The notes: generated by a model not told the origin, from the letters alone. A stretch of 64,000 nt of DNA from an uncultured archaeon (GCA_964373795.1 CAYJVY010000007.1:21385-85384); one strand, 5' to 3'. Shown: positions 29,862 to 64,000, counted from the stretch's first letter. Numbers and translations are program-made.

Positions 29862-30707
29862 ATGAAATATTTAATTTATGGAAAGGGTTGGCTTGGAAAT
29901 AAATTTAAACAATATTTTGCAGATGCTGAAATATCTTTATCAAGAGTGTTAGATTCCAAAACAATTGTACAAGAACTTAATGAAAAACAACCAAAGATAG
30001 TAATAAATTGTATTGGGATAACGGGAAACCCTAATATTGATTGGTGCGAATCTCATAAAAATGAAACCTTGTTTGGAAATGTTACAGTTCCTCTTTTACT
30101 ATTAGATGCATGTCAGCAAACTAATACTCCTTTAATGCATATTGGGAGTGGATGTATTTATGAAGGAGACAATAACGGCACAGGATTTTCAGAGGAAGAT
30201 CCTCCAAATTTTTTTGGAAGTTTTTATAGTCGTACAAAAATTTTGGCTGAACAAGCTCTAAAAGAGTTTCCAGTTTTACAATTGAGGTTAAGAATGCCGC
30301 TTGATTCAGTTCCTAATAAAAAAAATTTAATTACAAAATTAGTTGGATATAAAAAAGTAATAAGTGTAAAAAACTCTATTAGTGTTATAGATGACTTGCT
30401 TTTTGCTGCAAAAAAATTAATTGATAAAAAAAAGGTTGGAGTCTATAATGTTGTAAATCCAAACCCAATTGAGCATTCTGAAATTTTAGATTTATATAAG
30501 GAAATTGTTGATTCAAGTTTTAAATATGAAATAATGGCCTTGACTGAACTTGAAAAAATTACTAAAGCAAAAAGAAGTAATTGTGTTTTAAGTACTAGAA
30601 AGCTTGAGGGTGAGGGAATTCATTTGGATTCAACAAAGGTTGCTTTGAAAAGAATTTTTAAAGAGTACAAAAACCATTTGCAGAGTAATATTGAACTTCA
30701 AAAGTAA
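29862..30707 (+). CDS. RmlD-like NAD(P)-dependent sugar reductase/epimerase
   Basis: 281 aa. The pattern …CIGITGN…HIGSGCIYEGDNNGTGFSEEDPPNFFGSFYSRTKILAEQ… resembles the dTDP-4-dehydrorhamnose reductase substrate-binding domain. Confidence 0.6.
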   Translation: MKYLIYGKGWLGNKFKQYFADAEISLSRVLDSKTIVQELNEKQPKIVINCIGITGNPNIDWCESHKNETLFGNVTVPLLLLDACQQTNTPLMHIGSGCIYEGDNNGTGFSEEDPPNFFGSFYSRTKILAEQALKEFPVLQLRLRMPLDSVPNKKNLITKLVGYKKVISVKNSISVIDDLLFAAKKLIDKKKVGVYNVVNPNPIEHSEILDLYKEIVDSSFKYEIMALTELEKITKAKRSNCVLSTRKLEGEGIHLDSTKVALKRIFKEYKNHLQSNIELQK

Positions 30708-30712
30708 CCTTA

Positions 30713-31495
30713 TTATATTAAAGCATTTTTTAATGCGTCTTTGCATTCACATTTTCTTTCTTTTGAAGAATGAATTCTTGGAATAATTTCTGTAATTAAT
30801 TGTTTTACTTTTTCTGAATTGTTTTTCATTATTTGAATTATTTCTTCAACTGTAACAGGTTTTTCTGCAAATGAATCAAAATCTGTAACCATTGAAATAT
30901 TTGCATAACAAATTTCTGCTTCTCTTGCTAAAACCGCTTCTGGAACCAAAGTCATTCCAATTATTTGAGCACTCCATGAACGAAATAAATTTGATTCAGC
31001 TTTAGTGGAAAACCTTGGTCCTTCAATGCATACATAAGTTCCTTTTTCATGAAATTTTAAATTCAATTTTTTTGCTGAATTAATTAGAGTTTTTCTTAAA
31101 TCTTCACATATTGGGTGAGCAGTTGAAATATGACATACTTGGCTTCCCTCAAAAAATGTTTGCTTTCTATTAGTTGTTCTATCAATGAATTGATCTGCAA
31201 AAACAAATTCGCCTGGTTTAATGTTTTCCTGTAATGATCCAACTGCTGAAGGAGCTAAAATGAATTTTACTCCTAATTCTTTTAAAGCCCAAATATTTGC
31301 TCTATAATTTACATTTGATGGGTTGAATTGATGGTTCAAGCCATGTCTTGGAATTATTGCAATTTCTTTTCCTTCATATTTTCCTAATGTAATTAAATCG
31401 CTTGGACTTCCAAAAGGAGTGTGAACTTTTCTTTGGCTTGAATTTGTTAATAGTTTTGGATCGTATATTCCTGTTCCGCCAATTATTCCAATCAT
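30713..31495 (-). CDS. mtnP: 5'-methylthioadenosine / purine nucleoside phosphorylase
   Basis: PNP/MTAP family: MIGIIGGTGIYD…, phosphate-binding and purine-binding regions. Confidence 0.85.
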   Translation of the reverse strand: MIGIIGGTGIYDPKLLTNSSQRKVHTPFGSPSDLITLGKYEGKEIAIIPRHGLNHQFNPSNVNYRANIWALKELGVKFILAPSAVGSLQENIKPGEFVFADQFIDRTTNRKQTFFEGSQVCHISTAHPICEDLRKTLINSAKKLNLKFHEKGTYVCIEGPRFSTKAESNLFRSWSAQIIGMTLVPEAVLAREAEICYANISMVTDFDSFAEKPVTVEEIIQIMKNNSEKVKQLITEIIPRIHSSKERKCECKDALKNALI

Positions 31496-31510
31496 GTTTT
31501 TTTCACGATT

Positions 31511-32077
31511 TTATTGATCTGGTTTTTCGTATTTAATTAAAGAGAAAATATTGTGGCCTTTGAGTTTTTTTCTACCACCAAGCCATTCTAATTCTACTAA
31601 AAAAGTTAAATTTTTTATGTTTCCTTTTAATTTTTTCACTAGTTTTGTTGCAGCTAAAGCTGTTCCACCTGTTGCAAGTAAGTCATCCACTATTAAAACC
31701 GAGTCTCCTTTATCTATTCCATCTTCATGGATTTCAATTGAATCAGTTCCATATTCTAATTCATATTCTTGTTTAATTGTTTTAGCTGGAAGTTTTCCGG
31801 GTTTTCGTAGAGGAACAAAACCTGCATGTAATTCGTTTGCAAGAATTGCTCCAAAAATGAATCCTCTTGATTCAGCTGAAACAACTTTATCAAAATGCAA
31901 GTCATGTTCAATATAGTAATTAATCATTTCATTTACTACATATCTTAGAGTGTGAGCTTCTTTAAGCAAAGTAGTTATGTCATAGTATAATACTCCTTCT
32001 CTTGGAAAATCAGGAACTTTTCTAATTTTTTGTTTTAAATCTAGTTTAGCCATTGAATATAAATTAGTAGTTAACAC
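31511..32077 (-). CDS. apt: adenine phosphoribosyltransferase
   Basis: PRPP loop VLIVDDLLATGGTALA; type I PRTase of about 180 aa. Confidence 0.85.
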   Translation of the reverse strand: MLTTNLYSMAKLDLKQKIRKVPDFPREGVLYYDITTLLKEAHTLRYVVNEMINYYIEHDLHFDKVVSAESRGFIFGAILANELHAGFVPLRKPGKLPAKTIKQEYELEYGTDSIEIHEDGIDKGDSVLIVDDLLATGGTALAATKLVKKLKGNIKNLTFLVELEWLGGRKKLKGHNIFSLIKYEKPDQ

Positions 32078-32095
32078 TTTTAATTTTAACTGTTT

Positions 32096-33058
32096 TTAGT
32101 TTACTGTTTTTCTCCAGTAATTCAGTAAATCTTTTAACGTTTGTTCTATTGGAATTTTGGGTTTCCAATTAGTTTCTTTAACAAATTTAGAGTTGTCTCC
32201 TAAAAGTTTTGGAATTAATGCTTGTCTTAATCTTTTTTCATCAACTTTTATTTCAATTTTTTTATTGCTTAATTCTAATAATTTTTTCAATAAATCTTTC
32301 ATTAAAATTCCTTTTCCTGAACAAATATTGTATGCTTCTCCTGCTTTGCATTTTTCTGCTGCAAGCCAATAAGCTTTCACCATGTCTCGAACATCGGTGA
32401 AATCCCTAACTGTTTCAAGGTTTCCTACAAAAATAATTGGTTCTTTTTTGCCTTTTTCAATTTCAACTATTTGATGACACCAATCAGAGTCAACTGTTTT
32501 AGAGTCTCTTTTAAGGCCAATGTGATTAAAAGGACGAATTCGAACAATGTTTAATTCATAGCTTTTAAAGTATTGATATCCGAGTAAATCCATTGCTGCT
32601 TTGCTTGTTCCGTATGGAGTTAAAGGCCTAAATGGCTGTGTTTCTTTTATTGGTAATTCATTGTCATAAACTAATCCATATAATTCAGGACTTGAAATTG
32701 CAATTACTTTAGTTTTATCTGAATATTTTCTTATGCTTTCAAATAAATTAATTGCGCCATCAAAGTTTACTTGAAAGGTTTTTTTAGGGTTTTCAAAAGA
32801 ATCAGGAACAAATGCAACTGCTGCTAAATGAAAAATAATATCTGGTTGAACTTGTTTTATTACTTCGTTTAATTTTTTTTCGTCACAAATATCACATTCA
32901 AACAACTTTATTTTGTTTAAATGTTCTTCTAGTTTTTCAGTGTTTTTCTTATTTCTAATTATTCCGTGAATTTGAGTTTCTTTAACGTTTTTAATTAAAA
33001 ATTCAACTAAATGACTTCCTGCAAACCCTCCAATTCCTGTAATTAAAACTTTTTGCAT
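32096..33058 (-). CDS. GDP-mannose 4,6-dehydratase / GDP-4-keto-6-deoxymannose reductase family SDR (paralog 1)
   Basis: Motifs ITGIGGFAGSHL, YGTSKAAMD, and RPFNHIG, following the Gmd/Rmd extended-SDR pattern. Confidence 0.7.
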   Translation of the reverse strand: MQKVLITGIGGFAGSHLVEFLIKNVKETQIHGIIRNKKNTEKLEEHLNKIKLFECDICDEKKLNEVIKQVQPDIIFHLAAVAFVPDSFENPKKTFQVNFDGAINLFESIRKYSDKTKVIAISSPELYGLVYDNELPIKETQPFRPLTPYGTSKAAMDLLGYQYFKSYELNIVRIRPFNHIGLKRDSKTVDSDWCHQIVEIEKGKKEPIIFVGNLETVRDFTDVRDMVKAYWLAAEKCKAGEAYNICSGKGILMKDLLKKLLELSNKKIEIKVDEKRLRQALIPKLLGDNSKFVKETNWKPKIPIEQTLKDLLNYWRKTVN

Positions 33059-33145
33059 TCAAATCCATTCTCTAAAAATTGCTTCTAATATATCTTAATT
33101 GTTCTTATTAATATTTTTAAACTATTCTAAGTTTATTTTAAGTGA

Positions 33146-33457
33146 ATGGCTGAGTCAAAATTTTCTGCAATAAACAAATGTAGGTCGTGTGGATCGGAAA
33201 ATTTAGAGTTTGTTTTATCTCTTGGAACTCAATTTGTTTCTGCTTTTGTTGATTCAAATTAAATGGGGAAAAAAACTGTGGGAACTTTAATTCCAATTAT
33301 TTCTGAAGAACAAGCAAGAAAAGACAAGCCGAATTATTTTCTTATATTGCCTTGGCATTTTTTGAAAGAATTTAAAGAACGAGAAAAAGATTTCTTGAAT
33401 TCAGGCGGAAAATTTATTGTTCCTCTTCCTGAGTTTAAAATTATTTCTTCTCAATAA
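33146..33457 (+). pseudogene. internally deleted remnant of a TylCIII-like sugar C-methyltransferase
   Basis: N-terminal zinc ribbon (CRSCGSENLEFVLSLG) followed by an in-frame TAA at 33260 and ATG, then a C-terminal segment (PNYFLILPWHFLKEF…GGKFIVPLPEFKII) homologous to the C-termini of ORFs 48793 and 53406. The roughly 300 aa between them are missing. Confidence 0.5.
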
Positions 33458-34466
33458 GTTTAACAATTTTTTTCACGTTTTGAGCTTCATTTTTATGACA
33501 AATTAATATTTTATCATTGCTTTCGACAATAATTAAGTTTTTTACACCAATTAATCCAATTAATTTTTTTCCAAAAACGATGTTATTTTTTGATTCAATT
33601 GCAATTGTTGGAGCAATTAATGTATTTTGATTCTCATCTTTTCCAAATTTTCTTTCCAACGCAGTCCAATCTCCTATGTCATCCCAATCAATTGGCGCTT
33701 CAACAACACTTAAATTTAATTCTTTTTCCATTATCCCATAATCAATTGAAATGTTTTCAAGTCCATTAAAAACTTCTTGCATAATTTTTTCATTAAAATT
33801 TGATTGCTTTATTTTCATTAAACCTTGATATAAGTTTGGCATGAATTGTTTGAATGATTCAAGTATTACTTTTGCTTTAAAAATAAATATACCTGAATTC
33901 CATAAAAAGTTTTTTGATTCAATGAATTCTTCAGCTTTTTCTTTATTGGGTTTTTCTACAAATCTTTTTACTTCAAAAAGTTTGTCTTTAATTTTGTTTC
34001 CTTTTTCAATATATCCATACCCAGTTTCTGGACGAGTAGGAGTTATTCCAATTAAAACAATTTTCCCTTTTTCTGCTTCTTTAAAACCAATTTCTAAGTG
34101 TTCAAAATATTTTTTATTATCTTTATAAGTATGGTCTGATGTTTCAACTAAAATTGTTGCTTCTGGATTTTCACTTAAAATTTTTATAGCACTTAATCCA
34201 ATGCAGGCAGCAGTATTTTTTGCAATTGGCTCTAAAACAAACTTAGCTCTTGGAACGACTTTTTTAATTGGTTCGAACAAGTTTTTTCCAGTTGAAATAA
34301 AAATGTTTTTTTCAGGAATTAATTGAGTTAATCTTTCAACTGTTTCTTCAATCATTGTTTTTTCAGTGAAAATTTTCAAGCATTGTTTTGGAGTTTCCTT
34401 TGTTGAAGCAGGCCAAAATCTTTCACCAAATCCGCCAGCCATTATAACTACAAATCTATTTTGCAT
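33441..34466 (-). CDS. mannose-1-phosphate guanylyltransferase (NDP-sugar pyrophosphorylase)
   Basis: N-terminal VIMAGGFGERFWPAS motif and ManC-type architecture. Confidence 0.8.
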   Translation of the reverse strand: MQNRFVVIMAGGFGERFWPASTKETPKQCLKIFTEKTMIEETVERLTQLIPEKNIFISTGKNLFEPIKKVVPRAKFVLEPIAKNTAACIGLSAIKILSENPEATILVETSDHTYKDNKKYFEHLEIGFKEAEKGKIVLIGITPTRPETGYGYIEKGNKIKDKLFEVKRFVEKPNKEKAEEFIESKNFLWNSGIFIFKAKVILESFKQFMPNLYQGLMKIKQSNFNEKIMQEVFNGLENISIDYGIMEKELNLSVVEAPIDWDDIGDWTALERKFGKDENQNTLIAPTIAIESKNNIVFGKKLIGLIGVKNLIIVESNDKILICHKNEAQNVKKIVKLIEKK

Positions 34467-35424
34467 TTACTTTTTCTCTCCAGTAATTCAGTAAGTCTTT
34501 TAATGTCTGCTCAAATGGGATTTCTGGTTTCCAGCCTGTTTGTTTTATGAATTTAGTTGAATCACATAAAAGTAATGGCACATCACTTGGACGCATTCTT
34601 GAAGGATCTTTAACTATTTCGATTTTTATCTTTGTTAACTTTAAAAGCATTTGTTGTAGTTCCTTCATTGAATAAGCTTTTCCTGTTCCAATATTATATT
34701 CTTCTCCTGGAACCCCTTTTTCTGCAGCTAAATAATATGCTTTAACAATGTCTCTTACGTCAGTGAAATCTCTTCTTGCATCTAAGTTTCCACAGAATAA
34801 TTTTGGTTCTCTTTTTTTTGCTTCAATTTCAGCTATTTGTTTACACCAATTGCTTGCAACATATACTTGTCCTCTTCTAGGCCCTGTGTGATTGAATGCT
34901 CTTGTTCTAACTATTTTTAATCCATAGCTTTTAAAGTATTGATATCCAAATAAATCTGTTGCAACCTTGCTTACTCCGTAAGGACTTAAAGGTCTTAAAG
35001 GATTTGATTCTTTTATTGGAACCTCATTTTCTAAAACTAATCCATATTCTTCACTTGATCCAGCTAAATGAATTTGTGGATTTAATTCTAGTCTTCTTAA
35101 TGCTTCAAGCAAGTTAACTGTTCCAAAAATATTTGAATTAATTGTTTCGTGTGGAGCAAGCCAAGACTTTGGAACAAATGCTTGAGCAGCTAAATGAAAA
35201 ACATAATCTGGTTGAGATTGTTTTAATGAATCCAAAACAGTATTTTGATCAGTTAAATCACATTCAAATAATTTTACTTTATCTAAAATATGTTTAATGT
35301 TGTCTAGTTTTGCATTATATGTTCTAATAGTTCCATGTACTTCTCCTAATTTGTTACTCAAAATATAATCAGCTAAATGGCTTCCTGCAAAGCCTGTAAT
35401 GCCAGTAATAAAAAATTTCTTCAT
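34456..35424 (-). CDS. GDP-mannose 4,6-dehydratase / reductase family SDR (paralog 2)
   Basis: Motifs ITGITGFAGSHL, YGVSKVATD, and RAFNHTGPRRG (the Gmd NHxGPRRG signature). Confidence 0.7.
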   Translation of the reverse strand: MKKFFITGITGFAGSHLADYILSNKLGEVHGTIRTYNAKLDNIKHILDKVKLFECDLTDQNTVLDSLKQSQPDYVFHLAAQAFVPKSWLAPHETINSNIFGTVNLLEALRRLELNPQIHLAGSSEEYGLVLENEVPIKESNPLRPLSPYGVSKVATDLFGYQYFKSYGLKIVRTRAFNHTGPRRGQVYVASNWCKQIAEIEAKKREPKLFCGNLDARRDFTDVRDIVKAYYLAAEKGVPGEEYNIGTGKAYSMKELQQMLLKLTKIKIEIVKDPSRMRPSDVPLLLCDSTKFIKQTGWKPEIPFEQTLKDLLNYWREKVNAK

Positions 35425-36548
35425 TTTTCTTCCTCCAGTTCTTTTTCATAAACCTCAATAAATTTATTAATATTTTCTTTCCAATCAAACCTTTTAACAA
35501 AGTTTGAAGCATTTACGACAATTTTTTGCTTCTCTTTATTGTCTAAATTTATTATTTCATTAATTTTTTTAGCAGCATTTTCATGATTTGAATAATCGAC
35601 TAAAAAACCATTAGTATTATTATTAATTATGGTTCGAAATTGGTTTATATTATTTACGATTGGAATTAATTTTACAGTCATTCCTTCAATTAATGAAATT
35701 CCAAAACCTTCAAATTCTGAAGCCGAAACAAAATATTCCGCTTTTGCAAGTTCTTGTAATAAATCTTTTTCATTTCTTTCACCTAGTAAAAACACGTTTT
35801 TTTGTAATTTGTTTTCTTGAATTAATTCTGTTAACTCGTTAGTTAATCCATGAAAGTCTTTTCCAATTATTTTTAATTTCACGTTTGAATTTAATTTAAT
35901 CAGTTCTGCAAATGTTATAATTAAGTTGTCTACCCGTTTGTTTTTTGAGATTCTTCCAACAAAAATAAACGAATTTTTTTCCTGCTTTTTTTTTAGTTTA
36001 AATTTTTCTAGATTGAATGGAATTTCAATTACTCCTAAATTTTCTTTCTTAACTATCTTCGAAAAACTTTCAAAATCAGTTTTACCAATAGCTAAAATAT
36101 GTGACTTGTTTAGTGAAAACTTTAACCACAAATTAAAATAAATCCATTTTATAATACTTAATTTTCGTGTATGAAATATTCCTCCTCCTGTAGAGACAAC
36201 TAGTTTTTTCGAATGCAATCCAAGCAATTTTGTTAAAATTAAATAATCTGCAAAAAAACCCAATCCGTGAATATGGATTAAATCAAATTCTTTTACAAAA
36301 CTTAAAACCTTTAAAGCGATTTTATAATATTTTAAATCAATAAAAGGAATTCTGTGAATTTTAATGCCTTCTTCAAAAGATGCCTCTAGCAATATTTCAT
36401 CCGAGTTATGGCATTTATTTAAGCAGACAATTTCTGAATAGATTCCTTTTTTATTTAATTCTTTTGCCAACTCCAATACATATGTTTCAATTCCGCCAAT
36501 GCATGGAAAAACATGATTTGTCACATGTAATACTTTGAATTTTTTCAT
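35421..36548 (-). CDS. glycosyltransferase family 4
   Basis: C-terminal EFEGFGISLIEGM motif (the GT4 E-x7-E region). Confidence 0.75.
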   Translation of the reverse strand: MKKFKVLHVTNHVFPCIGGIETYVLELAKELNKKGIYSEIVCLNKCHNSDEILLEASFEEGIKIHRIPFIDLKYYKIALKVLSFVKEFDLIHIHGLGFFADYLILTKLLGLHSKKLVVSTGGGIFHTRKLSIIKWIYFNLWLKFSLNKSHILAIGKTDFESFSKIVKKENLGVIEIPFNLEKFKLKKKQEKNSFIFVGRISKNKRVDNLIITFAELIKLNSNVKLKIIGKDFHGLTNELTELIQENKLQKNVFLLGERNEKDLLQELAKAEYFVSASEFEGFGISLIEGMTVKLIPIVNNINQFRTIINNNTNGFLVDYSNHENAAKKINEIINLDNKEKQKIVVNASNFVKRFDWKENINKFIEVYEKELEEEK

Positions 36549-56140: not shown

Positions 56141-56503
56141 TAAAAAACTCCAAATGATATTTGACTTTGATTTAAATTTGTTGTATGAAAATATACTTCT
56201 TATTAAATAATTTGAATTATATTTATTGTATCTTAAAAAGTATTTAAACCTTTCTTTAGGTTGATGCTTTGTTTTATCCCAACTTAGGTTCCCTATATTT
56301 TTAACTATTACGTGGCCATCAAAACAAGAGTTCATAATTCATAAACAAGCGGCAAACTAGAACGCTGGTTTGGGACTGCAAAAAAACTCAAAAAACATTT
56401 TGGCAGAGGGAACATTAATTCAGAACAATACAAGAGCAGTGTTGAACCAAAACACTTAAAAACATTAAAAAAATACATATTTAAGAAAAACTTTTTGATT
56501 TTC

Positions 56504-57430: not shown

Positions 57431-58492
57431 ATGTTTCAATCAAAACAAGCCTTAATAGCAAAAACCCTTGAGAGAGGGGGTTTGGCTGGATTAACTAATT
57501 TAGCTTTAAGGTATTATGAAAGAAATAATCAACCAGACAAACCTCATTTTGTTCCAACTGCTTTGCAAATAGAAGTTACAACTGCTTGTAACTTGAAGTG
57601 CACAATGTGTGAGCATACTTACATGCAGGAAGTTGGAGGACACTTTGGTTTTAAGGAGTTCAAAAAATTATTGGATGACAATCCCACAATTCAAGTAATT
57701 AATTTAACTGGAATTGGAGAAGCTTTAATGAATCCAGAATTTTTGGAAATGGTTGAATATGCTAAAAAGAAAGGAATTTATGTATGGTTTTCAGATAATT
57801 TTACTTTAATGATTGAAAAAAACATTCAAAAAATTATAGATGTAGGGGTTGACTTTGTAGTTATTTCTTTGGATGGAACAACAAAAGAAGTGTTTGAAAA
57901 AATAAGGGTTGCAGCGAACTTTGAAAAAGTAATAGGGAATTTAAAAAATTTAATTAAAATGAGAAATGAGAGAGGATTAAAAACTCCTTTAATTGGAATT
58001 AACATGGTTGTAATGAATGAAAACTATCACCAAATTGCTGACATGGTTAAACTTGCAAATGAACTTGGAGTAGATAAATTAATGTTTATAACAATTGTTT
58101 TATCTGATACAACTGGAAATTTATCTTTGTGGAGTGTGCCCAAAGACAAACTTCAAGCAGAAGTTGAAAAAGCAAAAAAAGCTGCTGAAGGAACAAGTAT
58201 ACAAGTAATTAGTTGGCCAAATGTTTCACCTGAAAGAAAAAAAGAAACAGGTTGCGACTATCCTTGGAGTAATCCCTACATTACATATAATGGAGATGTA
58301 GTTCCTTGTTGTTTTATTCCACAACAAACAGGTGCTCGTACAAATTCAGAAAATCTTATGGGAAACATTTTGAAAGAAGACTTGAAAAAAATTTGGGTAA
58401 ACGAAAAATACGAAGAATTTAGAAAAAAAATTAAATCTAAAGATCCTCCAACTTCTTGTAAGTCTTGCCCGAAATTTTATGGACAAATTTAA
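57431..58492 (+). CDS. radical SAM enzyme with C-terminal SPASM/twitch Cys-rich domain
   Basis: TTACNLKCTMCEH (CxxxCxxC) and a C-terminal GCDYPW…VPCCFIP…SCKSCPKFY. Confidence 0.7.
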   Translation: MFQSKQALIAKTLERGGLAGLTNLALRYYERNNQPDKPHFVPTALQIEVTTACNLKCTMCEHTYMQEVGGHFGFKEFKKLLDDNPTIQVINLTGIGEALMNPEFLEMVEYAKKKGIYVWFSDNFTLMIEKNIQKIIDVGVDFVVISLDGTTKEVFEKIRVAANFEKVIGNLKNLIKMRNERGLKTPLIGINMVVMNENYHQIADMVKLANELGVDKLMFITIVLSDTTGNLSLWSVPKDKLQAEVEKAKKAAEGTSIQVISWPNVSPERKKETGCDYPWSNPYITYNGDVVPCCFIPQQTGARTNSENLMGNILKEDLKKIWVNEKYEEFRKKIKSKDPPTSCKSCPKFYGQI

Positions 58493-58507: not shown

Positions 58508-59623
58508 ATGAAAATTTTATATATTACTTCTGTTTTAGGAAATATTGGTGGAAGCGAGATTTATACTAGAGATTTAATTAAGGAGCTTGCAAAAAGAGGC
58601 CATGAAATTTTTGTTGTAACAAATGCTGTTTTTCAATTTCCCGAAAAAAATGTTTCAGTTTTTAAGATTCCAATTTTTGGACATCATGCTTTTCACAAAT
58701 TTCAAATGCCTTTATCATATTTTAAAATTTTGGAAAAAGTGAAAGAGTTTCAGCCTGACATAATTCAATGTCATAGTAATTCTTTAATGGGTTTGATTGG
58801 GCATATTCTTAAAAAAAAATTTCAAATCCCAATGTTTTTATTAATTGAATCAGTTAGCGATAAGAACGCCAACATTCACACTGAATTAATTTTTCGAGTT
58901 GAAAAATTTTTAATGCCAAAACTTAATTACAATAAATTAATTGTGTGGACTGAAAACATTAAAAATAAGTTTTGCATTCCTTGGGGAATTTCTGAAAAAA
59001 AGATTAAAGTAATTCCCGCAGCACTAAATTTAAATGAGTATCCCTTAAATGCAGATAAAAAAGCACTTCAAAAAAAACACGGAAAGCATTTAATTATTTC
59101 AATTAAATCTTTATGGGGAACTAATACTGAAGGATTGAAAACCATTGTTGAAGCCATGAAATTTGTTCATGAAAAACATCCTGAATATAAATATTTAATT
59201 TTTGGGTGGGGGCCAGGAAGAAAAGATTTAGAAGAACTAGCTGAAAAACTTGGCTTGCGAGATTGTGTACAATTAATGGGTGCATTTGAAAAAAATGAAA
59301 AAAATAGTATTTTTTCAGCTGCAGAAATAACTCCTCATTCACTTGTTTATGAAGTTGCAACCTCAATTTCTTTGCTTGAATGCATGGCTTTTGGAAAAGC
59401 TTGTGTAGTAACAGATATTGGTGCAATTAAAGATGTAGTAAAAGATACAGCTATTTTAGTAAAGCAAAACAATCCCAAATCAATGAGTGAAGGAATAATT
59501 AAATTAATTGAAAATACTGCATTAAGAAAAAAACTTGAAAAGAAGGCAAGAAAATTAGTTGAAAAAAAATATTCTATTCAAAGCACGGTAAATGAATTAG
59601 AAAAACTGTACTATGATGTTTGA
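58508..59623 (+). CDS. glycosyltransferase family 4
   Basis: MKILYITS…GGSEIY N-domain and a C-terminal E…CMAFGKACVVTDIG. Confidence 0.7.
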   Translation: MKILYITSVLGNIGGSEIYTRDLIKELAKRGHEIFVVTNAVFQFPEKNVSVFKIPIFGHHAFHKFQMPLSYFKILEKVKEFQPDIIQCHSNSLMGLIGHILKKKFQIPMFLLIESVSDKNANIHTELIFRVEKFLMPKLNYNKLIVWTENIKNKFCIPWGISEKKIKVIPAALNLNEYPLNADKKALQKKHGKHLIISIKSLWGTNTEGLKTIVEAMKFVHEKHPEYKYLIFGWGPGRKDLEELAEKLGLRDCVQLMGAFEKNEKNSIFSAAEITPHSLVYEVATSISLLECMAFGKACVVTDIGAIKDVVKDTAILVKQNNPKSMSEGIIKLIENTALRKKLEKKARKLVEKKYSIQSTVNELEKLYYDV

Positions 59624-60762
59624 GTATAAATTATATTATATTTGGGGATAATGTGCATTTTTGTATTTTGGCGGAATATTCAGCAGCTAAATATTTAGAG
59701 GGAACTAATAGAATAGTTTTTGAAGTTTCAAAAACATTAGTAGAAAAAGGACACAAAGTAACTGTATTGTCACCTGCATGGAATAAAAAGTCAAACCCTT
59801 TGGATATTGATCCGTGGAAGAAAGAAGGAATTATTGTTAAGCCTTTTGAAGGTTTTTTCTTACACAATCCTTTTTTTCGGATTTTTTTTTATATTTTAGC
59901 TGGATTAAAGTCAAGTCCTACTAATTTTGATGTTTTTTTTGGAGTTTATACAGCGCCGCCTGCAATTGCCGCAATTGTTTTAGGAAGTTTATTTAGAAAG
60001 AAAAAATTTGTTGGTTTGTGGGAACCAAATACTATTGAAAAACTTAAAAACAATCCTTTTTTTAGGTTTTTTATTAAAAAAGCAGACAGAATTCAGACGT
60101 TAAGTGATTATGTAAAAAATTTAATTTCTAAATCTTTTTCATATCCAAGCAAAAAGATTTATTCAATTAAAGGATTTGTTGATACTGAAAAATTTTATCC
60201 AGAGGCAATGGATAGAAATTTAGTTAAAAAATTTGATTTGAAAAACAAATTTGTTATCTTAAGTGTTGGGAGAGTCTCAAAATTAAAAGGGAGCGATACT
60301 TTGATTAAAGCAGTAGCCAAAATAAACGATCATTCCATTAAATTATTTTTTGTAGGAAGACCAACTCCAGATTTTGATTCAAAGAAATTAGTTAAAGAGT
60401 TAGGCATTGAAAAAAATGTCGTTTTTATTGGTTTTAAAAAACATGATTTTTTGCCTCCTTATTATAATTTATGTAATTTGTTTTCTTTACCATCTTTAAG
60501 TGAAGGGTTTGGATTAGTTGTTGCAGAAGCGCTAGCTTGTGCTAAACCTGTAATTGTCAGTGACCATGGACCTTTGCCAGAGGTTGTATCAAATGCAGGA
60601 TTTGTTGTGCCAGTTAATGATGTTGATAAATTAGCTCAGGCAATACTTAAAATTAAAAATAATTCAAATATTTTGAATTTGCAAAAAAAAGCATTAATAA
60701 GGTCAAAAGCTTTTACTCTAGAAAATGCAATGAATAGATATTTAAACTTTTTAACAAAATAA
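59620..60762 (+). CDS. glycosyltransferase family 4
   Basis: PSLSEGFGLVVAEALACAKPVIVSD, the GT4 signature. The start codon is uncertain; the ORF track uses a TTG that overlaps the upstream stop. Confidence 0.7.
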   Translation: MSINYIIFGDNVHFCILAEYSAAKYLEGTNRIVFEVSKTLVEKGHKVTVLSPAWNKKSNPLDIDPWKKEGIIVKPFEGFFLHNPFFRIFFYILAGLKSSPTNFDVFFGVYTAPPAIAAIVLGSLFRKKKFVGLWEPNTIEKLKNNPFFRFFIKKADRIQTLSDYVKNLISKSFSYPSKKIYSIKGFVDTEKFYPEAMDRNLVKKFDLKNKFVILSVGRVSKLKGSDTLIKAVAKINDHSIKLFFVGRPTPDFDSKKLVKELGIEKNVVFIGFKKHDFLPPYYNLCNLFSLPSLSEGFGLVVAEALACAKPVIVSDHGPLPEVVSNAGFVVPVNDVDKLAQAILKIKNNSNILNLQKKALIRSKAFTLENAMNRYLNFLTK

Positions 60763-60813
60763 TTTCTAATAACTCAAATTAATTTATATTAATATTTAAT
60801 TTTGGTGATAAAA

Positions 60814-61872
60814 ATGAGTGAAAAAAAAGCTTTACTTACTGGTGGTGCAGGATTTATTGGAACAAATGCTGCCAATTATTTTTTGAAAAAGGGGTGGGAA
60901 ATAACTATATTAGATAACTTTTCTAGAAGGGGCACAAGAGAAAATGCTAATTGGTTAAAAAATCTTTTTCCAGAAAAACTTAAAATAGTTGAAGCAGATA
61001 TTGTTACAAATTTTAATGTGTTAAAAAGTAAAGTTAAAGAAAGTGATTTAATTATTCATTTAGCTGGACAGGTTGCTGTAACTACTTCTATTTTAAATCC
61101 GAGAGACGATTTTAAAGTGAATGCCTTAGGAACATTTAATGTTTTAGAAGCTTTAAGAAAAACAGATTCAGATGCTACATTAGTCTATCCCTCGACCAAT
61201 AAAGTTTATGGAAAAATGCAACAACTTGAAGTTCAAGAAAAAGAAACGCGCTATATATATAAAGATTATTCTAGTGGAATTCCCGAATCAATGCAGTTAG
61301 ATTTTTTTTCCCCTTATGGATGTTCTAAAGGAACTGGGGATCAATATGTGCGAGATTATGAAAGAATTTATGGTTTAAATACCGTTGTATTTAGACAAAG
61401 CTGTATTTATGGTGAAAGGCAATTTGGAATTGAAGACCAGGGATGGATTGCATGGTTTGTTATTTCCTCAATATTAGGCAAGCAAATTCATATTTATGGA
61501 AATGGAAAACAAGTTAGAGATGTATTATATGTAAATGATTTAATTGAAGCATATGAATTGGCACATCAAAAAATTAGTTTTTGTAGAGGACAGATTTTCA
61601 ATATTGGAGGAGGAACAGACAGATCAATGAGTTTATTAGAGTTACTTAGTTTTTTGGAAGAACTTGTTGGGAGAAAAATGAATTATATTTTTGAAGATCA
61701 ACGACCCGGAGATCAATTAATTTATATTAGTGATATTTCTAAAGTTCACGATAAGCTTGGTTGGACTCCTAAAACAAGTGTAAATGAAGGTGTGAAAAAA
61801 TTAGTTGATTGGGTTTTTGAAAACCAAAAGTTAGTGAAAACTGTTTTAGCAGATTTATTGAAAAAAGTTTAA
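60814..61872 (+). CDS. NAD-dependent epimerase, CDP-paratose 2-epimerase-like
   Basis: [17 protein letters not shown]…ILDNFSRRGTRENANWL, YGCSKGTGDQY. Confidence 0.65.
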   Translation: MSEKKALLTGGAGFIGTNAANYFLKKGWEITILDNFSRRGTRENANWLKNLFPEKLKIVEADIVTNFNVLKSKVKESDLIIHLAGQVAVTTSILNPRDDFKVNALGTFNVLEALRKTDSDATLVYPSTNKVYGKMQQLEVQEKETRYIYKDYSSGIPESMQLDFFSPYGCSKGTGDQYVRDYERIYGLNTVVFRQSCIYGERQFGIEDQGWIAWFVISSILGKQIHIYGNGKQVRDVLYVNDLIEAYELAHQKISFCRGQIFNIGGGTDRSMSLLELLSFLEELVGRKMNYIFEDQRPGDQLIYISDISKVHDKLGWTPKTSVNEGVKKLVDWVFENQKLVKTVLADLLKKV

Positions 61873-61938: not shown

Positions 61939-62325
61939 GTGGGCAGAACTTTTCTTATTACGGGTGGTGCAGGATTTATTGGTTCGAATTATGTTGAATT
62001 TCATTTAAATAAATATCCTGAAGATGAGGTAATTGTTTTGGATAAATTAACTTATGCTGGTAGAAAAGAAAATTTAAAAGAATTTGAGTCAAACTCAAAT
62101 TTTGAATTTGTTAAAGGAGACATTTGTAATAAAAAATTGGTTGAAAAACTGGTTAAAGATGTTGATGTTGTAATTAATTTTGCTGCTGAAACTATGACAA
62201 TATGCAACAAGAATCATACTTCAAAACACAACTATGCAACCAACTACTCTAACTACAAACCAGTTAAGCCAACATGCTCAACAAAACCACAAGTTATGCA
62301 ACAGAGCATCACTCCTCGCCGATGA
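61939..62325 (+). pseudogene. 5' fragment of dTDP-glucose 4,6-dehydratase (rmlB) duplicate
   Basis: Codons 11-85 (61969-62193) are nucleotide-identical to the intact rmlB at 63373-63597. After that the reading frame runs into unrelated C/A-rich sequence. Confidence 0.55.
61969..62193 (+). repeat. 225-bp perfect direct repeat, copy 1
   Basis: Identical to 63373..63597, an offset of 1404 bp. Compared by eye. Confidence 0.7.
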
Positions 62326-62452
62326 ATTAATTTTTTAATCCTTTCTATGCAAACTTTGTGATTAGGTTATGGTGGAGAAGAAAAGAATAATGAAAAAATG
62401 GCGAATCTTTCTTGAAACCATTTTTAAATGTAGAAAAAACAGAGTTGTTTAA

Positions 62453-63127
62453 ATGAAAACCAATCAAACATTTGAAAGCAAAGATCTTAAGGAGCAAAAA
62501 GAATATGCAGAACATTATGAGGAATTTTCAGAACTGGAACTATTTAATATAAAAATTCTTAAAAAAATAGCCAAACACCTAAAAGAGCCCATACTTGATG
62601 TTGGTTGTTTTACTGGGAGGAAAGCAGCGTTTTTTTATGAAAATGGGTATAAGGATATTTCTGGATGTGATATTTCAAATAACTCCATCAAACAAGCAAA
62701 AAAATCATACCCCTTCATAAACTTCTTCCAACATGATATGGTAAAAAGTTCAACAAGTGAAAAATACAATTCAGTAATCTGCTTTCAAACAATTGAGCAC
62801 ATTTTTAACTATCATAGATTCTTAAAAAATATTGTTGGTTCATTGAACAATGGAGGAGTGGCGGTTATTGAAACGCCCAATGCGTGCAGCATAATTACTA
62901 GAGCAAGGCTACTACTTGGTGATGCTAGGAATTTTACAGGAAACATTGATGAGTCACATATAAGGTTTTTCAGTAAGACCTGTCTAGAGAAAGCAATGGA
63001 AAAACAAGGGATGACTATTGTTCAGTCGTTTGGCTACAATATTAGGCCAATTGTCAAACCAATTGAGTTTATTTCTTCAACTAGTTGGAAAGAAGTGCTT
63101 GTTGTAATTGCAAAAAAACAACTCTAA
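62453..63127 (+). CDS. class I SAM-dependent methyltransferase
   Basis: ILDVGCFTGRKAAFF (motif I), GCDIS (post-I), and VICFQTIEHI (motif II/III). Its codon usage is more C-rich than that of neighbouring genes. Confidence 0.7.
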   Translation: MKTNQTFESKDLKEQKEYAEHYEEFSELELFNIKILKKIAKHLKEPILDVGCFTGRKAAFFYENGYKDISGCDISNNSIKQAKKSYPFINFFQHDMVKSSTSEKYNSVICFQTIEHIFNYHRFLKNIVGSLNNGGVAVIETPNACSIITRARLLLGDARNFTGNIDESHIRFFSKTCLEKAMEKQGMTIVQSFGYNIRPIVKPIEFISSTSWKEVLVVIAKKQL

Positions 63128-63280
63128 AAAACTCACAAATTTTTTTTATGCTGATTTAGGCGTCCCAGTCTAGAAAAATTGTGAAACTCCTGTTGTAATT
63201 AAAATCTAGATTTATATTACCAAATAAAACTTTAAAGAGGTTATTAGTACAAAAACTCAAATTATTTCCCCCAACTTATG

Positions 63281-63387
63281 TTGCAAATTTGTATTACTAG
63301 GATATAAAAACTTTAACTCACTAGTTAAATAATAATATGAATACATTAAAAACTGTTTTAGTTACAGGGGGAGCAGGATTTATTGGT
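63281..63387 (+). repeat. promoter + 5'-CDS cassette; inverted copy of 50953..51057
   Basis: See the paired repeat feature at 50953..51057. Confidence 0.6.
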
Positions 63388-64000
63388 TCGAATTATGTTG
63401 AATTTCATTTAAATAAATATCCTGAAGATGAGGTAATTGTTTTGGATAAATTAACTTATGCTGGTAGAAAAGAAAATTTAAAAGAATTTGAGTCAAACTC
63501 AAATTTTGAATTTGTTAAAGGAGACATTTGTAATAAAAAATTGGTTGAAAAACTGGTTAAAGATGTTGATGTTGTAATTAATTTTGCTGCTGAAACTCAT
63601 GTTGATAGATCAATTCAAGGACAAGCAGAGTTTCTTGAAACAAATATTATTGGAACTTACAATTTATTGGAAGCCTCACGAAATTCAAGTGTTAAAAAAT
63701 TTTTGCAGATTTCAACTGACGAAGTTTATGGTTCGGTGGAAAAAGGTTCTAGCTTAGAAACGGATGAATTAAAGCCTCGAAATCCTTATTCTGCTTCAAA
63801 AGCAGCAGCTGATAGGTTTGCTTATTCTTATTTTGCAACTTATGGATTGCCTGTTTTAATTACTCGTGCTTCAAATAATTATGGTCCAAAACAATTTCCG
63901 GAAAAGGTTTTACCTTTGTTTATTACAAATTTGTTAAAAGGAAAAAAAGTTCCATTGTATGGTGATGGAAAAAATGTTCGAGACTGGCTTTACGTGGAAG
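63337..64000 (+). CDS. rmlB: dTDP-glucose 4,6-dehydratase (partial, runs off the window end)
   Basis: [23 protein letters not shown]…DKLTYAGRKENL…ETHVDRSI…YSASKAAADRF…GDGKNVRDWLYVE. Confidence 0.8.
   Translation, partial: MNTLKTVLVTGGAGFIGSNYVEFHLNKYPEDEVIVLDKLTYAGRKENLKEFESNSNFEFVKGDICNKKLVEKLVKDVDVVINFAAETHVDRSIQGQAEFLETNIIGTYNLLEASRNSSVKKFLQISTDEVYGSVEKGSSLETDELKPRNPYSASKAAADRFAYSYFATYGLPVLITRASNNYGPKQFPEKVLPLFITNLLKGKKVPLYGDGKNVRDWLYVE
63373..63597 (+). repeat. 225-bp perfect direct repeat, copy 2 (inside intact rmlB)
   Basis: Identical to 61969..62193. Confidence 0.7.

Follow-up and report, generated by a model that had tools for sequence, protein, structure and literature searches.

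What does this locus make, and do the methyltransferases and radical SAM enzymes in it act on the sugars of a surface glycan? The window, a 64-kb (64,000-nucleotide) stretch of archaeal DNA, was studied for the genes it contains, the families they belong to, their conserved residues, their synteny and the linkage of aglB in relatives. Our preferred reading, at a probability of roughly 0.6, takes the region to be a surface-glycan island from a DPANN archaeon (Micrarchaeota/Iainarchaeota type) that most probably serves AglB-dependent N-glycosylation. The nearest homologues and syntenic loci carried the labels Micrarchaeota, Iainarchaeum/Diapherotrites or 'archaeon', bearing out the initial annotation of a glycan island in a DPANN-like host, a tiny symbiotic-type archaeon. 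The two sugar C-methyltransferases (C-MTs) and the radical SAM enzymes in the conserved core suggest surface sugars with C-methyl branches; we know of no report of such sugars in archaea.

Nucleotide-sugar branches of the island

The three nucleotide-sugar branches proposed earlier (GDP-mannose, UDP-GlcA to UDP-Xyl and dTDP-type) were all present at the domain or motif level. The following genes flank the core:

32096-33058, minus strand: GMD/RMD-like SDR (Pfam/NCBIfam)
33441-34466, minus: ManC (NCBIfam TIGR01479, 302 bits)
34456-35424, minus: GMD-like SDR (Pfam/NCBIfam)
35421-36548, minus: GT4 (Pfam)
36549-37508, minus: GT2, two C-terminal TM helices (Pfam, hydrophobicity scan)
37563-38369, minus: sugar-1-P nucleotidyltransferase (Pfam, NCBIfam)
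38509-39807, plus strand: Ugd (TuaD 566 bits, TIGR03026 488 bits)
39812-40609, plus: NTase (Pfam)
40685-42028, plus: PMM/PGM (Pfam)
42043-42972, plus: UXS-type UDP-GlcA decarboxylase, an SDR (motifs STSEIYG and YDESKR; Pfam)
42978-43577, plus: apparently broken GT2, split into 110-aa and 76-aa ORFs
44641-45063, plus: cupin, RmlC/FdtA/WbuC-like (weak FdtA/RmlC/WbuC matches)
45073-46872, plus: membrane protein, 599 aa, 11 predicted TM helices (weakly EpsG/Wzy-like)
46861-47793, minus: GT2, N-terminal TM helices (hydrophobicity scan)
47905-48789, plus: RmlD-type NDP-4-keto-6-deoxyhexose reductase (PF04321, 221 bits)
59620-60762, plus: GT4 (gap to preceding GT4 -4 nt)
60802-61872, plus: SDR, CDP-tyvelose-2-epimerase type (motif PSTNKVYG; 39 nt after the GT4)
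61939-62325, plus: truncated RmlB duplicate (247-nt repeat, 97% identity)
62453-63127, plus: class I methyltransferase (domain search)
63338 to beyond 64000, plus: genuine intact RmlB, running off the window

The GDP-mannose branch occupies one minus-strand block (32096-35424; Pfam, NCBIfam and SDR motifs), its two SDRs carrying the motifs SSEEYG and SSPELYG. These SDR genes are direct repeats with 74-79% nucleotide identity and a spacing of 2366 and are, by sequence, recent paralogues. The dTDP-type branch consists of the NTases at 37563 and 39812, the RmlD at 47905 (216.6 bits against TIGR01214, cut-off 224), a weak RmlD-like gene at 29862, the cupin at 44641 and the RmlB at 63338. No island enzyme, all SDRs and NTases included, reached an NCBIfam equivalog cut-off, which counts against our reading; RmlA, Gmd and similar names thus hold at the family level only and do not fix nucleotide or sugar specificity.

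The GT2 at 36549-37508 is probably of the polyprenol-phosphate sugar synthase type. In the broken GT2 the Pfam match spans only profile positions 2-104 of 168 and the second ORF carries on GT2-like sequence; the split is probably a frameshift, pseudogene or sequencing error. With one GT2 broken and one RmlB copy truncated, decay may have set in over some of the island, a further point against our reading. The stretch at 30713-32077 was ruled out as glycan machinery and encodes a PNP-family phosphorylase and a phosphoribosyltransferase. An Ig/fn3 surface protein of 1097 aa is encoded at 24888-28181.

A conserved eight-gene cassette

The core is a cassette of eight genes: two C-MTs, two SDRs, a UDP-HexNAc-type 6-dehydrogenase, a twitch radical SAM enzyme, one GT2 and one GT4. 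A B12-domain radical SAM gene is inserted into it, between CMT2 and the GT2:

48793-50007, minus: CMT1, NDP-sugar C-MT of the TylC3/TcaB9/MtmC family, module A (PF08421, PF08484 and class I methyltransferase domain, E 1e-50)
50010-51002, minus: extended SDR, UXS/GalE type, module A (catalytic Ser-x-Glu, SSSETYAG)
51169-52410, plus: DH2, nucleotide-sugar 6-dehydrogenase of the UDP-HexNAc (Cap5O/WecC) group, module A (TIGR03026, 315 bits, above cut-off)
52411-53352, minus: SDR, UDP-HexNAc 4-epimerase group, module B (motif PSTCIIYG, without the catalytic Glu)
53406-54665, plus: CMT2, second NDP-sugar C-MT, module B (same architecture as CMT1)
54680-56140, minus: class B radical SAM enzyme, predicted B12-binding domain (PF02310, PF04055, motif CVYSCNYC)
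56495-57391, plus: soluble GT2, module B (Pfam)
57431-58492, plus: radical SAM enzyme, BtrN-like twitch (abridged SPASM) domain (PF04055, PF13186)
58508-59623, plus: GT4 of the cassette (15 nt after the twitch radical SAM gene)

Pfam domain searches placed the four genes highlighted earlier, the C-MTs and the radical SAM enzymes, at the same coordinates with the same domains. DH2 is a second nucleotide-sugar dehydrogenase that the initial annotation missed. The cassette was syntenic in nine contigs labelled Micrarchaeota, Iainarchaeum or 'archaeon' (L005, L006/L012, L008-L011 and L013-L015), at about 52-75% protein identity. This recurrence in independent contigs shows that the highlighted genes lie together beyond chance, and both radical SAM genes recur as conserved members of glycan clusters.

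The SDR at 50010 grouped with UXS (110 bits against human UXS1); its orthologues (64-72% identity) always adjoin CMT1, and we propose it as the generator of a 4-keto sugar. DH2 (orthologues 67-69% identical) grouped with Cap5O/WecC, scoring 202 bits against Cap5O (3ojl) and also matching the P. horikoshii UDP-ManNAcA dehydrogenase. The SDR at 52411 matched 6dnt (187 bits), WbpP and WbgU, with orthologues at 50-60% identity, and may be an epimerase or 4-ketoreductase. The GT2 at 56495 consistently accompanies the twitch radical SAM enzyme: its orthologue (52-75% identity) lay within 4 kb in 9/9 orthologous loci, and directly upstream on the same strand in 5/9. In the window, this GT2, the twitch enzyme, both GT4s and the tyvelose-type SDR share a strand, with gaps after the radical SAM gene of 15, -4 and 39 nt.

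No aglB, Wzx flippase or initiating phosphoglycosyltransferase was found in the 64-kb window, which counts against our reading; aglB may lie just beyond, since the window ends inside the island. AglB-dependent N-glycosylation is favoured because aglB (oligosaccharyltransferase) lies within 10 kb in seven related loci (L005, L006/L012, L011, L013, L014, L017 and L020), with an AglH-like GT and Alg13/14 homologues also present in L005. The cis-prenyltransferase gene upstream of the island (20916-21614) is a further point in favour, as is the glycosylated S-layer of a cultivated Micrarchaeon (bioRxiv 10.1101/2021.04.28.441871).

It is unlikely, though conceivable, that the same tailoring enzymology has another destination, a polymerised surface polysaccharide or other glycoconjugate (Wzy- or synthase-type). 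The window without aglB would fit this, as would the Wzx-type flippases beside orthologues of the B12-domain enzyme. Bacterial relatives of the twitch enzyme (34-36% identity; an acidobacterial and a cyanobacterial locus) are flanked by a Wzx flippase and a GT2, which is in keeping with our own reading; they point to the alternative in that the surrounding clusters are of the Wzx polysaccharide type and also encode GT-C enzymes. The EpsG/Wzy-like match of the 599-aa protein is however under the curated cut-off (E 0.0018, 17.9 against 30.1 bits), and this protein had no match in the PDB. The island is cut by the window end, and aglB adjoins the orthologous cassette in the seven related archaeal loci, arguing for N-glycosylation.

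The C-methyltransferases are true family members

In line with the TylCIII/NovU type given in the initial annotation, both C-MTs belong to the TylC3/TcaB9/MtmC family; they keep its zinc, SAM and catalytic residues. They are 38% identical to each other and matched MtmC over their full length (CMT1 270 bits against 4rv9; CMT2 291 bits). CMT1 keeps the four Zn cysteines, the SNDG SAM motif and the equivalents of His181, Tyr222, Glu224 and His225; where TcaB9 has Tyr76 it carries Phe, which counts against our reading. CMT2 keeps all five TcaB9 catalytic positions, Tyr76 included, and its database copy (P0184, 419 aa) agrees with the start codon at 53406. Orthologues of CMT1 (65-68% identity) occurred in five distinct loci (six locus ids, L006 and L012 being one contig); those of CMT2 were 57-63% identical.

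The PF08421 Zn ribbon, class I SAM domain and PF08484 are shared with the NDP-hexose 3-C-methyltransferases TylC3, TcaB9, MtmC and KijD1 (200-291 bits over the full length, with the SAM motif and the catalytic His, Glu and Tyr kept) and with the C5-methylase NovU, all from actinomycete antibiotic deoxysugar pathways. This likeness does not fix C3 versus C5 regiochemistry or the nucleotide carrier. Whilst those systems lie in secondary-metabolite clusters with dTDP-2,6-dideoxy machinery, CMT1 and CMT2 lie in an archaeal surface-glycan cluster beside a UDP-HexNAc-type dehydrogenase and epimerase-like SDRs. These partners suggest UDP-HexNAc or uronate chemistry no less than dTDP-deoxyhexoses. TylC3-type C-MTs are common in DPANN metagenomes, so their presence is less unusual than first implied, and the 'heavily C-methylated, branched deoxysugar' was overstated, as no product is derivable from the genes.

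A twitch radical SAM enzyme coupled to a glycosyltransferase

The domain at 57431-58492 labelled SPASM proved to be a BtrN-like twitch domain with one auxiliary cluster. The only invariant cysteines were C53/57/60 and C275, C293, C294, C343 and C346, four of which align with the BtrN auxiliary-cluster ligands C169/C187/C232/C235. The AF2 model (pLDDT 89.7) lacks a peptide-recognition (RRE) domain, and with flanking gaps of only 39 and 15 nt a precursor gene would not fit beside the enzyme. This agrees with the earlier observation that no obvious peptide substrate lies nearby. BlsE, a glucuronide decarboxylase, was the top PDB match in both sequence and fold, with DesII and viperin also high. 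SuiB, CteB and SkfB scored like BlsE and DesII in the fold search, which did not separate sugar- from peptide-acting enzymes and so counts against our reading.

The carbohydrate-acting enzymes BtrN, DesII, BlsE, NeoN, HygY and AviX12, of the twitch-domain type or related to it, share the CxxxCxxC core and single-cluster twitch domain and likewise have no peptide-binding domain. The enzyme here shares only ~19% identity with them, has the extra invariant Cys294 and forms a separate family, encoded by DPANN archaea, Cyanobacteria and Acidobacteria within cell-surface glycan clusters. It is coupled to a GT2, not to aminoglycoside or nucleoside enzymes.

A non-sugar substrate for either or both of the radical SAM enzymes, be it a surface protein or enzyme (anSME-like, metallocofactor maturation), polyprenol or membrane lipid, seems improbable; the enzymes would then be only co-located with glycan genes. 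Among NCBIfam families the twitch enzyme scored highest against the putative metalloenzyme (tungsten-enzyme) maturase TIGR04317, which speaks for this and against our reading, but at 177 bits against a cut-off of 380; the matches of the B12-domain enzyme to the lipid-biosynthesis family TIGR04072 and to HpnJ/HpnR are likewise far under their cut-offs. The peptide maturases SuiB, CteB, SkfB and PqqE are near the twitch enzyme in fold and the 1097-aa surface protein is encoded at 24888-28181, yet RRE domain and precursor ORF are both absent and MiaB/RimO-type matches are negligible (33.8 bits against the NCBIfam cut-off of 251). Tight coupling with the same GT2, C-MTs and SDRs is kept across archaea, and coupling with a flippase and GT2 in bacteria, which argues for a sugar substrate.

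An accessory B12-domain radical SAM enzyme

The ORF of the B12-domain enzyme extends to 56335. The shorter start is favoured because GGAG directly precedes the ATG at 56140 and the longer ORF puts the B12 domain at residue 106. Only four close relatives (59-66% identity) were found, each encoded in a glycan cluster from an uncultured archaeon (the named ones Micrarchaeota) beside a Wzx-type flippase, GTs and SDRs. The enzyme is an accessory confined to few lineages. Class B radical SAM paralogues lie ~10 kb or less from the twitch enzyme in seven further DPANN loci.

The AF2 model (pLDDT 88) matched TsrM, MgmA, AprD4 and OxsB in fold. It is only putatively a methylase: in structure the sugar diol-dehydratase AprD4 matches it as well as the class B methylases do. 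The substrate of AprD4 is an aminoglycoside sugar. Tentatively, the enzyme could be a cobalamin-independent AprD4-type 1,2-diol dehydratase, or catalyse some other rearrangement, yielding a deoxy or keto sugar. AprD4 (6fd2) had the top TM-scores among PDB matches (0.71/0.75) whilst the methylases TsrM and MgmA had better Foldseek E-values; AprD4 was also the second-best sequence match (67 bits), and the non-methylases HpnJ and BchE were among the top NCBIfam matches. Methylation is favoured by the PF02310 match, which scored 40.4 bits (gathering cut-off 32.1), and by class B enzymes characterised so far being mostly methylases (PMC9204698). The sugar C-methylases GenK, GenD1 and MoeK5, which depend on cobalamin, and AprD4, a non-methylase related to them, share the N-terminal B12-type Rossmann domain, radical SAM core and similar fold (PMC9204698, PMC4340712), and the gene here also lies among sugar-tailoring genes. 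Unlike theirs, it belongs to an archaeal cell-surface cluster, and the enzyme has at most ~21% identity to any solved class B member and falls below every curated NCBIfam subfamily cut-off.

Neither outcome that the initial annotation set against itself was found: neither radical SAM enzyme was placed among the tRNA methylthiotransferases or among peptide maturases with a precursor, and the C-MTs keep their SAM-binding residues. Its glycan island, C-MT family and glycan-linked radical SAM enzymes stand, whilst the SPASM label, the B12-domain enzyme as a methylase, heavy C-methylation and the rarity of C-MTs lack support or go too far.

A proposed pathway and its relatives

Substrates, step order, product and acceptor are predictions here. 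Housekeeping-type branches would supply GDP-Man with its 6-deoxy derivatives, the pair UDP-GlcA and UDP-Xyl, and 6-deoxyhexoses of dTDP type; the conserved eight-gene cassette would see to tailoring and transfer. In module A, DH2 and the UXS/GalE-type SDR, with its catalytic Glu, would form an NDP-4-keto sugar, either a 4-keto-pentose via decarboxylation or a 4-keto-6-deoxyhexose; CMT1 would then methylate the carbon adjoining the keto group via an enolate, as TcaB9 and MtmC do. In module B, CMT2 may do likewise with another substrate or at another position, C4 may be set or reduced by the epimerase-like SDR, and the GT2 and GT4 would move the products onto a polyprenol-linked glycan. The twitch enzyme, tied to the GT2, may abstract H from an unactivated sugar carbon for an oxidation, epimerisation or decarboxylation like those of BtrN, DesII, BlsE, NeoN or HygY. 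The B12-domain enzyme may methylate an unactivated sugar carbon (GenK/GenD1/MoeK5-like) or dehydrate a diol (AprD4-like).

The agl clusters characterised for N-glycosylation in the archaea Haloferax, Halobacterium, Methanococcus and Sulfolobus likewise hold clustered nucleotide-sugar genes, GT2/GT4 enzymes and a polyprenol-P sugar synthase-type GT2. The relatives of the island add adjoining aglB, an AglH-like GT and Alg13/14 homologues, aglB being absent from the window here. To our knowledge, no characterised agl pathway includes a C-MT or radical SAM enzyme. On bacterial surfaces C-methyl-branched sugars do occur, for example Coxiella burnetii virenose and dihydrohydroxystreptose, a TylC3-type C-MT there serving a surface glycan, not an antibiotic. 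The Bacillus cereus pathway from UDP-GlcNAcA to UDP-XylNAc uses first a UDP-HexNAc 6-dehydrogenase and then a UXS-like decarboxylase. Both systems are bacterial and, as far as we know, without associated radical SAM enzymes. Module A appears to resemble the B. cereus UDP-XylNAc-type pathway in its enzyme families.

Gene content of the glycan island

The G+C content is about 29% across the whole window and ORFs are densely packed from 29862 to its end. Pfam domains across this glycan island agree with the content listed in the initial annotation, and the four genes it highlighted (two C-methyltransferases and two radical SAM enzymes) are present with the coordinates and domains it gave.

Highlighted genes and their neighbours (the eight genes marked c form a cassette)
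48793-50007 (-), C-methyltransferase CMT1, c
start 50010, short-chain dehydrogenase/reductase SDR_50010, c
51169-52410, nucleotide-sugar dehydrogenase DH2, c
start 52411, SDR_52411, c
53406-54665 (+), C-methyltransferase CMT2, c
54680-56140 (-), B12-domain radical SAM enzyme
56495-57391, glycosyltransferase GT2, c
57431-58492 (+), twitch radical SAM enzyme, c
58508-59623, glycosyltransferase GT4, c
start 60802, SDR_60802

The three nucleotide-sugar branches proposed earlier hold at family level, but no SDR or nucleotidyltransferase (NTase) reached an NCBIfam equivalog cut-off. The NCBIfam search likewise gave no equivalog-level name to the C-methyltransferases or radical SAM enzymes.

Nucleotide-sugar branches
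GDP-mannose branch: PMM/PGM, ManC, two GMD-like SDRs
UDP-GlcA to UDP-Xyl branch: Ugd and an SDR with the UXS signature (STSEIYG, YDESKR)
dTDP-type branch: two NTases, a near-cut-off RmlD, a weak RmlD-like protein, a cupin and a true RmlB

The product of 42043-42972 has the features of UXS, a catalytic T/S-x-E and a YxxxK inside the YDE(G/S)KR motif; there is no equivalog model for UXS, and the related NF008872 gives 102 bits against a cut-off of 294. The true RmlB starts at 63338 and extends past the window end. DH2, a second nucleotide-sugar dehydrogenase, was absent from the earlier inventory. Conversely, 30713-32077, which falls inside the bounds first drawn for the island, encodes non-glycan enzymes: a PNP/MTAP-family phosphorylase and a phosphoribosyltransferase at the island edge. 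Phosphorylases of this family can act in the salvage of 5'-deoxyadenosine or MTA, which radical SAM and other SAM enzymes release as by-products, and a link of this one to such salvage is speculative.

A 599-aa protein (45073-46872) has 11 predicted TM helices and a soluble C-terminal part. It had no above-cut-off Pfam match (weakly EpsG/Wzy-like, E 0.0018) and no PDB match. Homologues occur in three loci on other contigs (L004, L018 and L020), adjoined by a GT2 in L004 and L018. The protein may be a polymerase, GT-C-like enzyme or flippase.

C-methyltransferases CMT1 and CMT2

Both proteins combine a PF08421 zinc ribbon, a class I methyltransferase domain and PF08484. The four-Cys zinc ribbon scored 76 and 67 bits in CMT1 and CMT2 respectively (cut-off 31.3), with CxxC...CxxC visible in the alignments, and PF08484 scored 172 and 145 bits. 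Each matched MtmC (D-mycarose 3-C-methyltransferase, 4rv9) over its full length, CMT1 at 270 and CMT2 at 291 bits, and TcaB9 and KijD1 at about 205-217 bits. The SAM-binding segments, a glycine-rich motif and the stretch with the acidic ribose ligand, of CMT1 (IDIGSNDG / GVDPS) and CMT2 (LDIASNDG / GVEPA) align with VEIGCNDG / GFEPS of TcaB9. Loss of SAM-binding residues had been named as grounds for dropping the assignment; the SNDG SAM motif is kept in both proteins, as are the four zinc cysteines. With TcaB9 numbering anchored by the mutant PDB entries 4e31 (Y76F) and 4e2y (E224Q), His181, Tyr222, Glu224 and His225 are also kept in both (NVFAHV; IYAEHL and IYHEHL), and the Tyr76 position is Tyr in CMT2 and Phe in CMT1. 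Judged by sequence, CMT1 and CMT2 belong to a known family, the TylC3/TcaB9-type NDP-sugar C-methyltransferases.

CMT1 and CMT2 share 38% identity, indicating that they are old paralogues, and they probably differ in substrate or position. Among the best 120 homologues, all named ones were from DPANN archaea, at 44-63% identity. The family is abundant in DPANN metagenomes, and the two enzymes are thus less exceptional than the initial annotation held.

The twitch radical SAM enzyme

The protein encoded at 57431-58492 had been described as a radical SAM/SPASM enzyme. PF04055 and PF13186 are both present, but by cysteine pattern the C-terminal domain is a twitch domain and not SPASM. In an alignment of 23 homologues, the CxxxCxxC motif is accompanied by just five further invariant cysteines (C275, C293, C294, C343 and C346). 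A SPASM domain, with two auxiliary clusters, has the seven-Cys motif CX9-15GX4C...CX2CX5CX3C...C; with only five invariant C-terminal cysteines and no CX5CX3C segment, a full SPASM domain was ruled out. In a phmmer alignment C275, C293, C343 and C346 fall exactly on C169, C187, C232 and C235 of BtrN, which are the ligands of its single auxiliary cluster. The NCBIfam 'twitch' model NF033640 gave 89 bits, under its cut-off of 170.

A competing assignment was a RiPP or peptide maturase with an identifiable precursor, a group whose members SuiB, CteB and PqqE are among the structural matches. In the AlphaFold model (pLDDT 89.7) the N-terminus is a lone helix (residues 5-33) and no RRE domain was found. 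The gene lies 39 and 15 nt from its neighbours, which together with the missing RRE makes a peptide precursor very unlikely. Maturases of the SuiB, CteB, PqqE, AlbA and anSME types were rejected, there being no RRE and no precursor gene, and NCBIfam matches lying far under their cut-offs. anSME in particular is not among the best matches, and the 'sulfatase' neighbour in locus L007 is probably not a sulfatase; this 672-aa protein, with PF00884 and weak Phosphodiest matches, is presumably an LtaS/phosphotransferase-type membrane enzyme.

Foldseek placed BlsE (cytosylglucuronate decarboxylase) first, followed with similar scores by SuiB, DesII, CteB, SkfB, PqqE and viperin, and the predicted fold by itself leaves the reaction type undecided. 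The enzyme would abstract hydrogen at an unactivated carbon, leading to oxidation, epimerisation or decarboxylation. By analogy with NeoN and HygY, one might speculate that the invariant extra Cys294 is the hydrogen donor of an epimerase.

The B12-domain radical SAM enzyme

PF02310 (40.4 bits, cut-off 32.1) and PF04055 (83 bits, with a CVYSCNYC motif) were both confirmed in the protein encoded at 54680-56140. This gene lies within a longer ORF reaching 56335, and the public protein P0001 is given as 551 aa, starting with the ATG found there. The additional 65 residues are low-complexity and would put the start of the B12 domain at residue 106, whereas the ATG at 56140 has an SD-like GGAG before it. 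We therefore kept the 486-aa form, in line with the shorter gene of the initial annotation; the annotated P0001 start is probably wrong, judging from these sequence features.

Close relatives are few. Just four were found at 59-66% identity, with the next at 33%. All retrieved contexts (database protein P0003 on three contigs, P0005 on one) are glycan clusters, with neighbours including a Wzx-type flippase, GT4, GT2, SDRs, NTases and a DegT aminotransferase; a TylC3-type C-methyltransferase is present in three of these loci and a second B12 radical SAM gene in two. In seven more DPANN loci, class B paralogues (22-28% identity) are found no more than about 10 kb from the twitch gene. In the window, the gene sits between CMT2 and GT2, a junction that is uninterrupted in relatives.

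None of the curated NCBIfam B12 subfamilies passed its cut-off: HpnJ scored 138.8 (cut-off 577.6), BchE 138.3 (481) and TIGR04295 131.7 bits (400), and MgmA-type and other subfamilies were also under cut-off. To our knowledge, no universal sequence motif for cobalamin binding exists. Membership of the MiaB/RimO tRNA/rRNA methylthiotransferases, which had been raised as a reading that would count against a sugar role, was rejected: TIGR00089 gave 33.8 bits against a cut-off of 251, the UPF0004/TRAM architecture is lacking, and fold matches to that family rank under class B.

The predicted model (pLDDT 88) resembles TsrM, MgmA, OxsB, CysS and TokK. Its best TM-score was to AprD4, a cobalamin-free 1,2-diol dehydratase acting on paromamine that has the same fold, and the fold search leaves the reaction type of the modelled protein undecided. 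Sugar C-methylation has precedents among B12 radical SAM enzymes in GenK, GenD1 and MoeK5 (PMC9204698, PMC4340712). The proposed role as a B12-dependent sugar C-methylase is plausible by this analogy, but AprD4, which is not a methylase, fits the fold too.

A conserved cassette, linked to aglB in related loci

Orthologues of the twitch enzyme at 57-64% identity occurred only in DPANN MAGs, and their neighbourhoods are conserved. The cassette recurs in two arrangements, type I (CMT1-SDR50010, radical SAM-DH2-GT4, GT2-CMT2, SDR52411) and type II (CMT2-GT2-radical SAM-SDR52411-SDR60802-GT4-RmlB). The window has all eight cassette genes in rearranged order, their proteins 52-75% identical to those of type I and II loci. 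A GT2 orthologue lies <4 kb from the twitch gene in 9/9 orthologous loci, and at least one C-methyltransferase <6 kb away in all six loci with enough upstream sequence. A PDB search with the cassette GT2 returned nothing informative.

More distant relatives of the twitch enzyme (34-36% identity) come from an Acidobacteria MAG and from the cyanobacterium Altericista (complete genome). They lie between a Wzx flippase and a GT2, and close by are GT-C enzymes and another radical SAM paralogue. Taken together, the conserved archaeal neighbourhoods and this bacterial context lead us to conclude that the family works on glycans, with an NDP-sugar or a lipid-linked sugar as the possible substrate. In some related DPANN glycan loci (L017, L018 and L020, on Iainarchaeum/archaeon MAG contigs), about 20 kb holds two to three paralogues of the twitch/SPASM type together with as many as three of the B12-domain type; radical SAM enrichment thus seems to be a general trait of such clusters.

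The partner enzymes suggest a route. DH2 clusters with UDP-HexNAc 6-dehydrogenases (Cap5O, 202 bits; P. horikoshii UDP-ManNAcA dehydrogenase). SDR_50010 carries the Ser-x-Glu and YxxxK residues typical of dehydratases and decarboxylases, with human UXS1 among its matches. SDR_52411 is without the catalytic Glu and groups with the UDP-HexNAc 4-epimerases 6dnt, WbpP and WbgU. SDR_60802 carries the motif PSTNKVYG, the signature of CDP-tyvelose 2-epimerase. In module A (DH2, SDR_50010 and CMT1), UDP-HexNAc would be oxidised to a uronate, or a hexose dehydrated, giving a 4-keto intermediate that CMT1 would then methylate on the carbon beside the keto group. Module B (CMT2, SDR_52411, GT2, the twitch enzyme and GT4) would make and install a second modified sugar.

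The oligosaccharyltransferase gene aglB (STT3) was not found in the 64-kb window, which stops inside the island. It lies <10 kb from the orthologous cassette in L005, L006/L012 (one contig), L011, L013, L014, L017 and L020, and L005 additionally encodes an AglH-like GT and Alg13/14 homologues. We give slightly less than even odds (about 0.45) to the following reading. The twitch enzyme would represent an uncharacterised family of glycan-modifying radical enzymes in surface polysaccharide or N-glycan clusters of DPANN archaea, Cyanobacteria and Acidobacteria; with TylC3-type C-methyltransferases, and B12 radical SAM enzymes in some lineages, it would give DPANN N-glycans carbon-branched or radically epimerised or oxidised sugars.

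Relation to known glycosylation systems

Archaeal N-glycans vary widely in their chemistry. Metagenomes often contain unusual glycan clusters. C-methyl-branched sugars and radical SAM tailoring are hallmarks of antibiotic sugar biosynthesis in known systems; we know of no archaeal N-glycan pathway with either. Nor are we aware of carbon-branched or radically epimerised or oxidised sugars described from any archaeon. A literature search found nothing on C-methyltransferases or radical SAM enzymes in the glycosylation of archaea or in DPANN glycan clusters, and an archaeal glucuronyl C5-epimerase proved unrelated, the enzyme not being a radical SAM protein. By sequence, each of the two radical SAM enzymes falls in a known superfamily but outside every characterised subfamily.

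The sugar chemistry proposed for the cassette is putative. The aglB-linked cassette offers eight concrete, testable proteins for new sugar chemistry, and thus a good experimental entry, and it ties to a function a radical SAM family that is found just as much in polysaccharide clusters of bacteria. The S-layer of the one cultivated Micrarchaeon is glycosylated, yet this archaeon was reported to lack nucleotide-sugar synthesis and to rely on its host for nucleotide sugars (bioRxiv 10.1101/2021.04.28.441871). By contrast, the window genome has plenty of such genes. The cassette shows that some DPANN archaea put much into making their own nucleotide sugars, a difference that bears on symbiont-host surface recognition.

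Host and genes outside the island

The nearest relatives of three island proteins bear the labels Micrarchaeota, Diapherotrites/Iainarchaeum, Woesearchaeota, Nanoarchaeota or 'archaeon'. The host is therefore supported as the DPANN-like archaeon first suggested, the evidence being these labels and synteny. Outside the island lie genes for CarAB, PRPP synthase, a P-type ATPase, a FlaI/FlaJ-like pair of ATPase and membrane protein, a TrmB regulator and a flavoprotein resembling geranylgeranyl reductase, as well as for a cis-prenyltransferase and an Ig/fn3 surface protein of 1097 aa. The cis-prenyltransferase (20916-21614; UppS/dehydrodolichyl-PP synthase family, E 8e-60) adjoins tRNA-Gln(CTG) at 21678-21750, the sole tRNA in the window, and is the likely source of a polyprenol carrier. 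Just upstream of the island, the 1097-aa protein (24888-28181) combines Big_13, Big_7, fn3 and cadherin-like domains. Such a protein could be a surface or S-layer-type glycoprotein and might serve as acceptor of the glycan.

Duplications, repeats and broken genes

A GT2 gene at 42978-43577 is broken into ORFs of 110 and 76 aa. A minus-strand ORF of 109 aa (44034-44363) is similar to a methyltransferase (ILEVG motif), but only to its N-terminal part. The region 43310-44640 (about 1.3 kb) is without any intact gene, so it may have decayed or been misassembled.

The 5' part of RmlB occurs a second time at 61939-62325. The underlying direct repeat of 247 nt (61947-62193 and 63351-63597; 97% identity) copies the first ~85 RmlB codons, after which the upstream copy continues as a short tail unlike the family. 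Between the two RmlB copies lies a gene for a class I methyltransferase (62453-63127). The repeat looks like a recent insertion or duplication event.

SDR_50010 and RmlB are near-identical over their first 17 codons and about 115 nt upstream (97% and 79%; 50953-51117 (-) versus 63221-63386 (+)). The common stretch contains a TATA-like box, 'ggatataaaaac', about 30 nt before the ATG. Since the two genes encode different SDRs and stand 12 kb apart, their likeness suggests that they share a promoter module or have undergone gene conversion. A promoter/terminator scan, for which the consensus was bacterial, was uninformative, with fewer promoter-like sites than in shuffled sequence.

A recent duplication is indicated for the two GMD-like SDR genes on either side of ManC (32096-33058 and 34456-35424): they have stretches in common with 74-79% nucleotide identity, always 2366 nt apart. 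Their catalytic motifs are SSEEYG in one and SSPELYG in the other, a difference that may mark a dehydratase/reductase pair.
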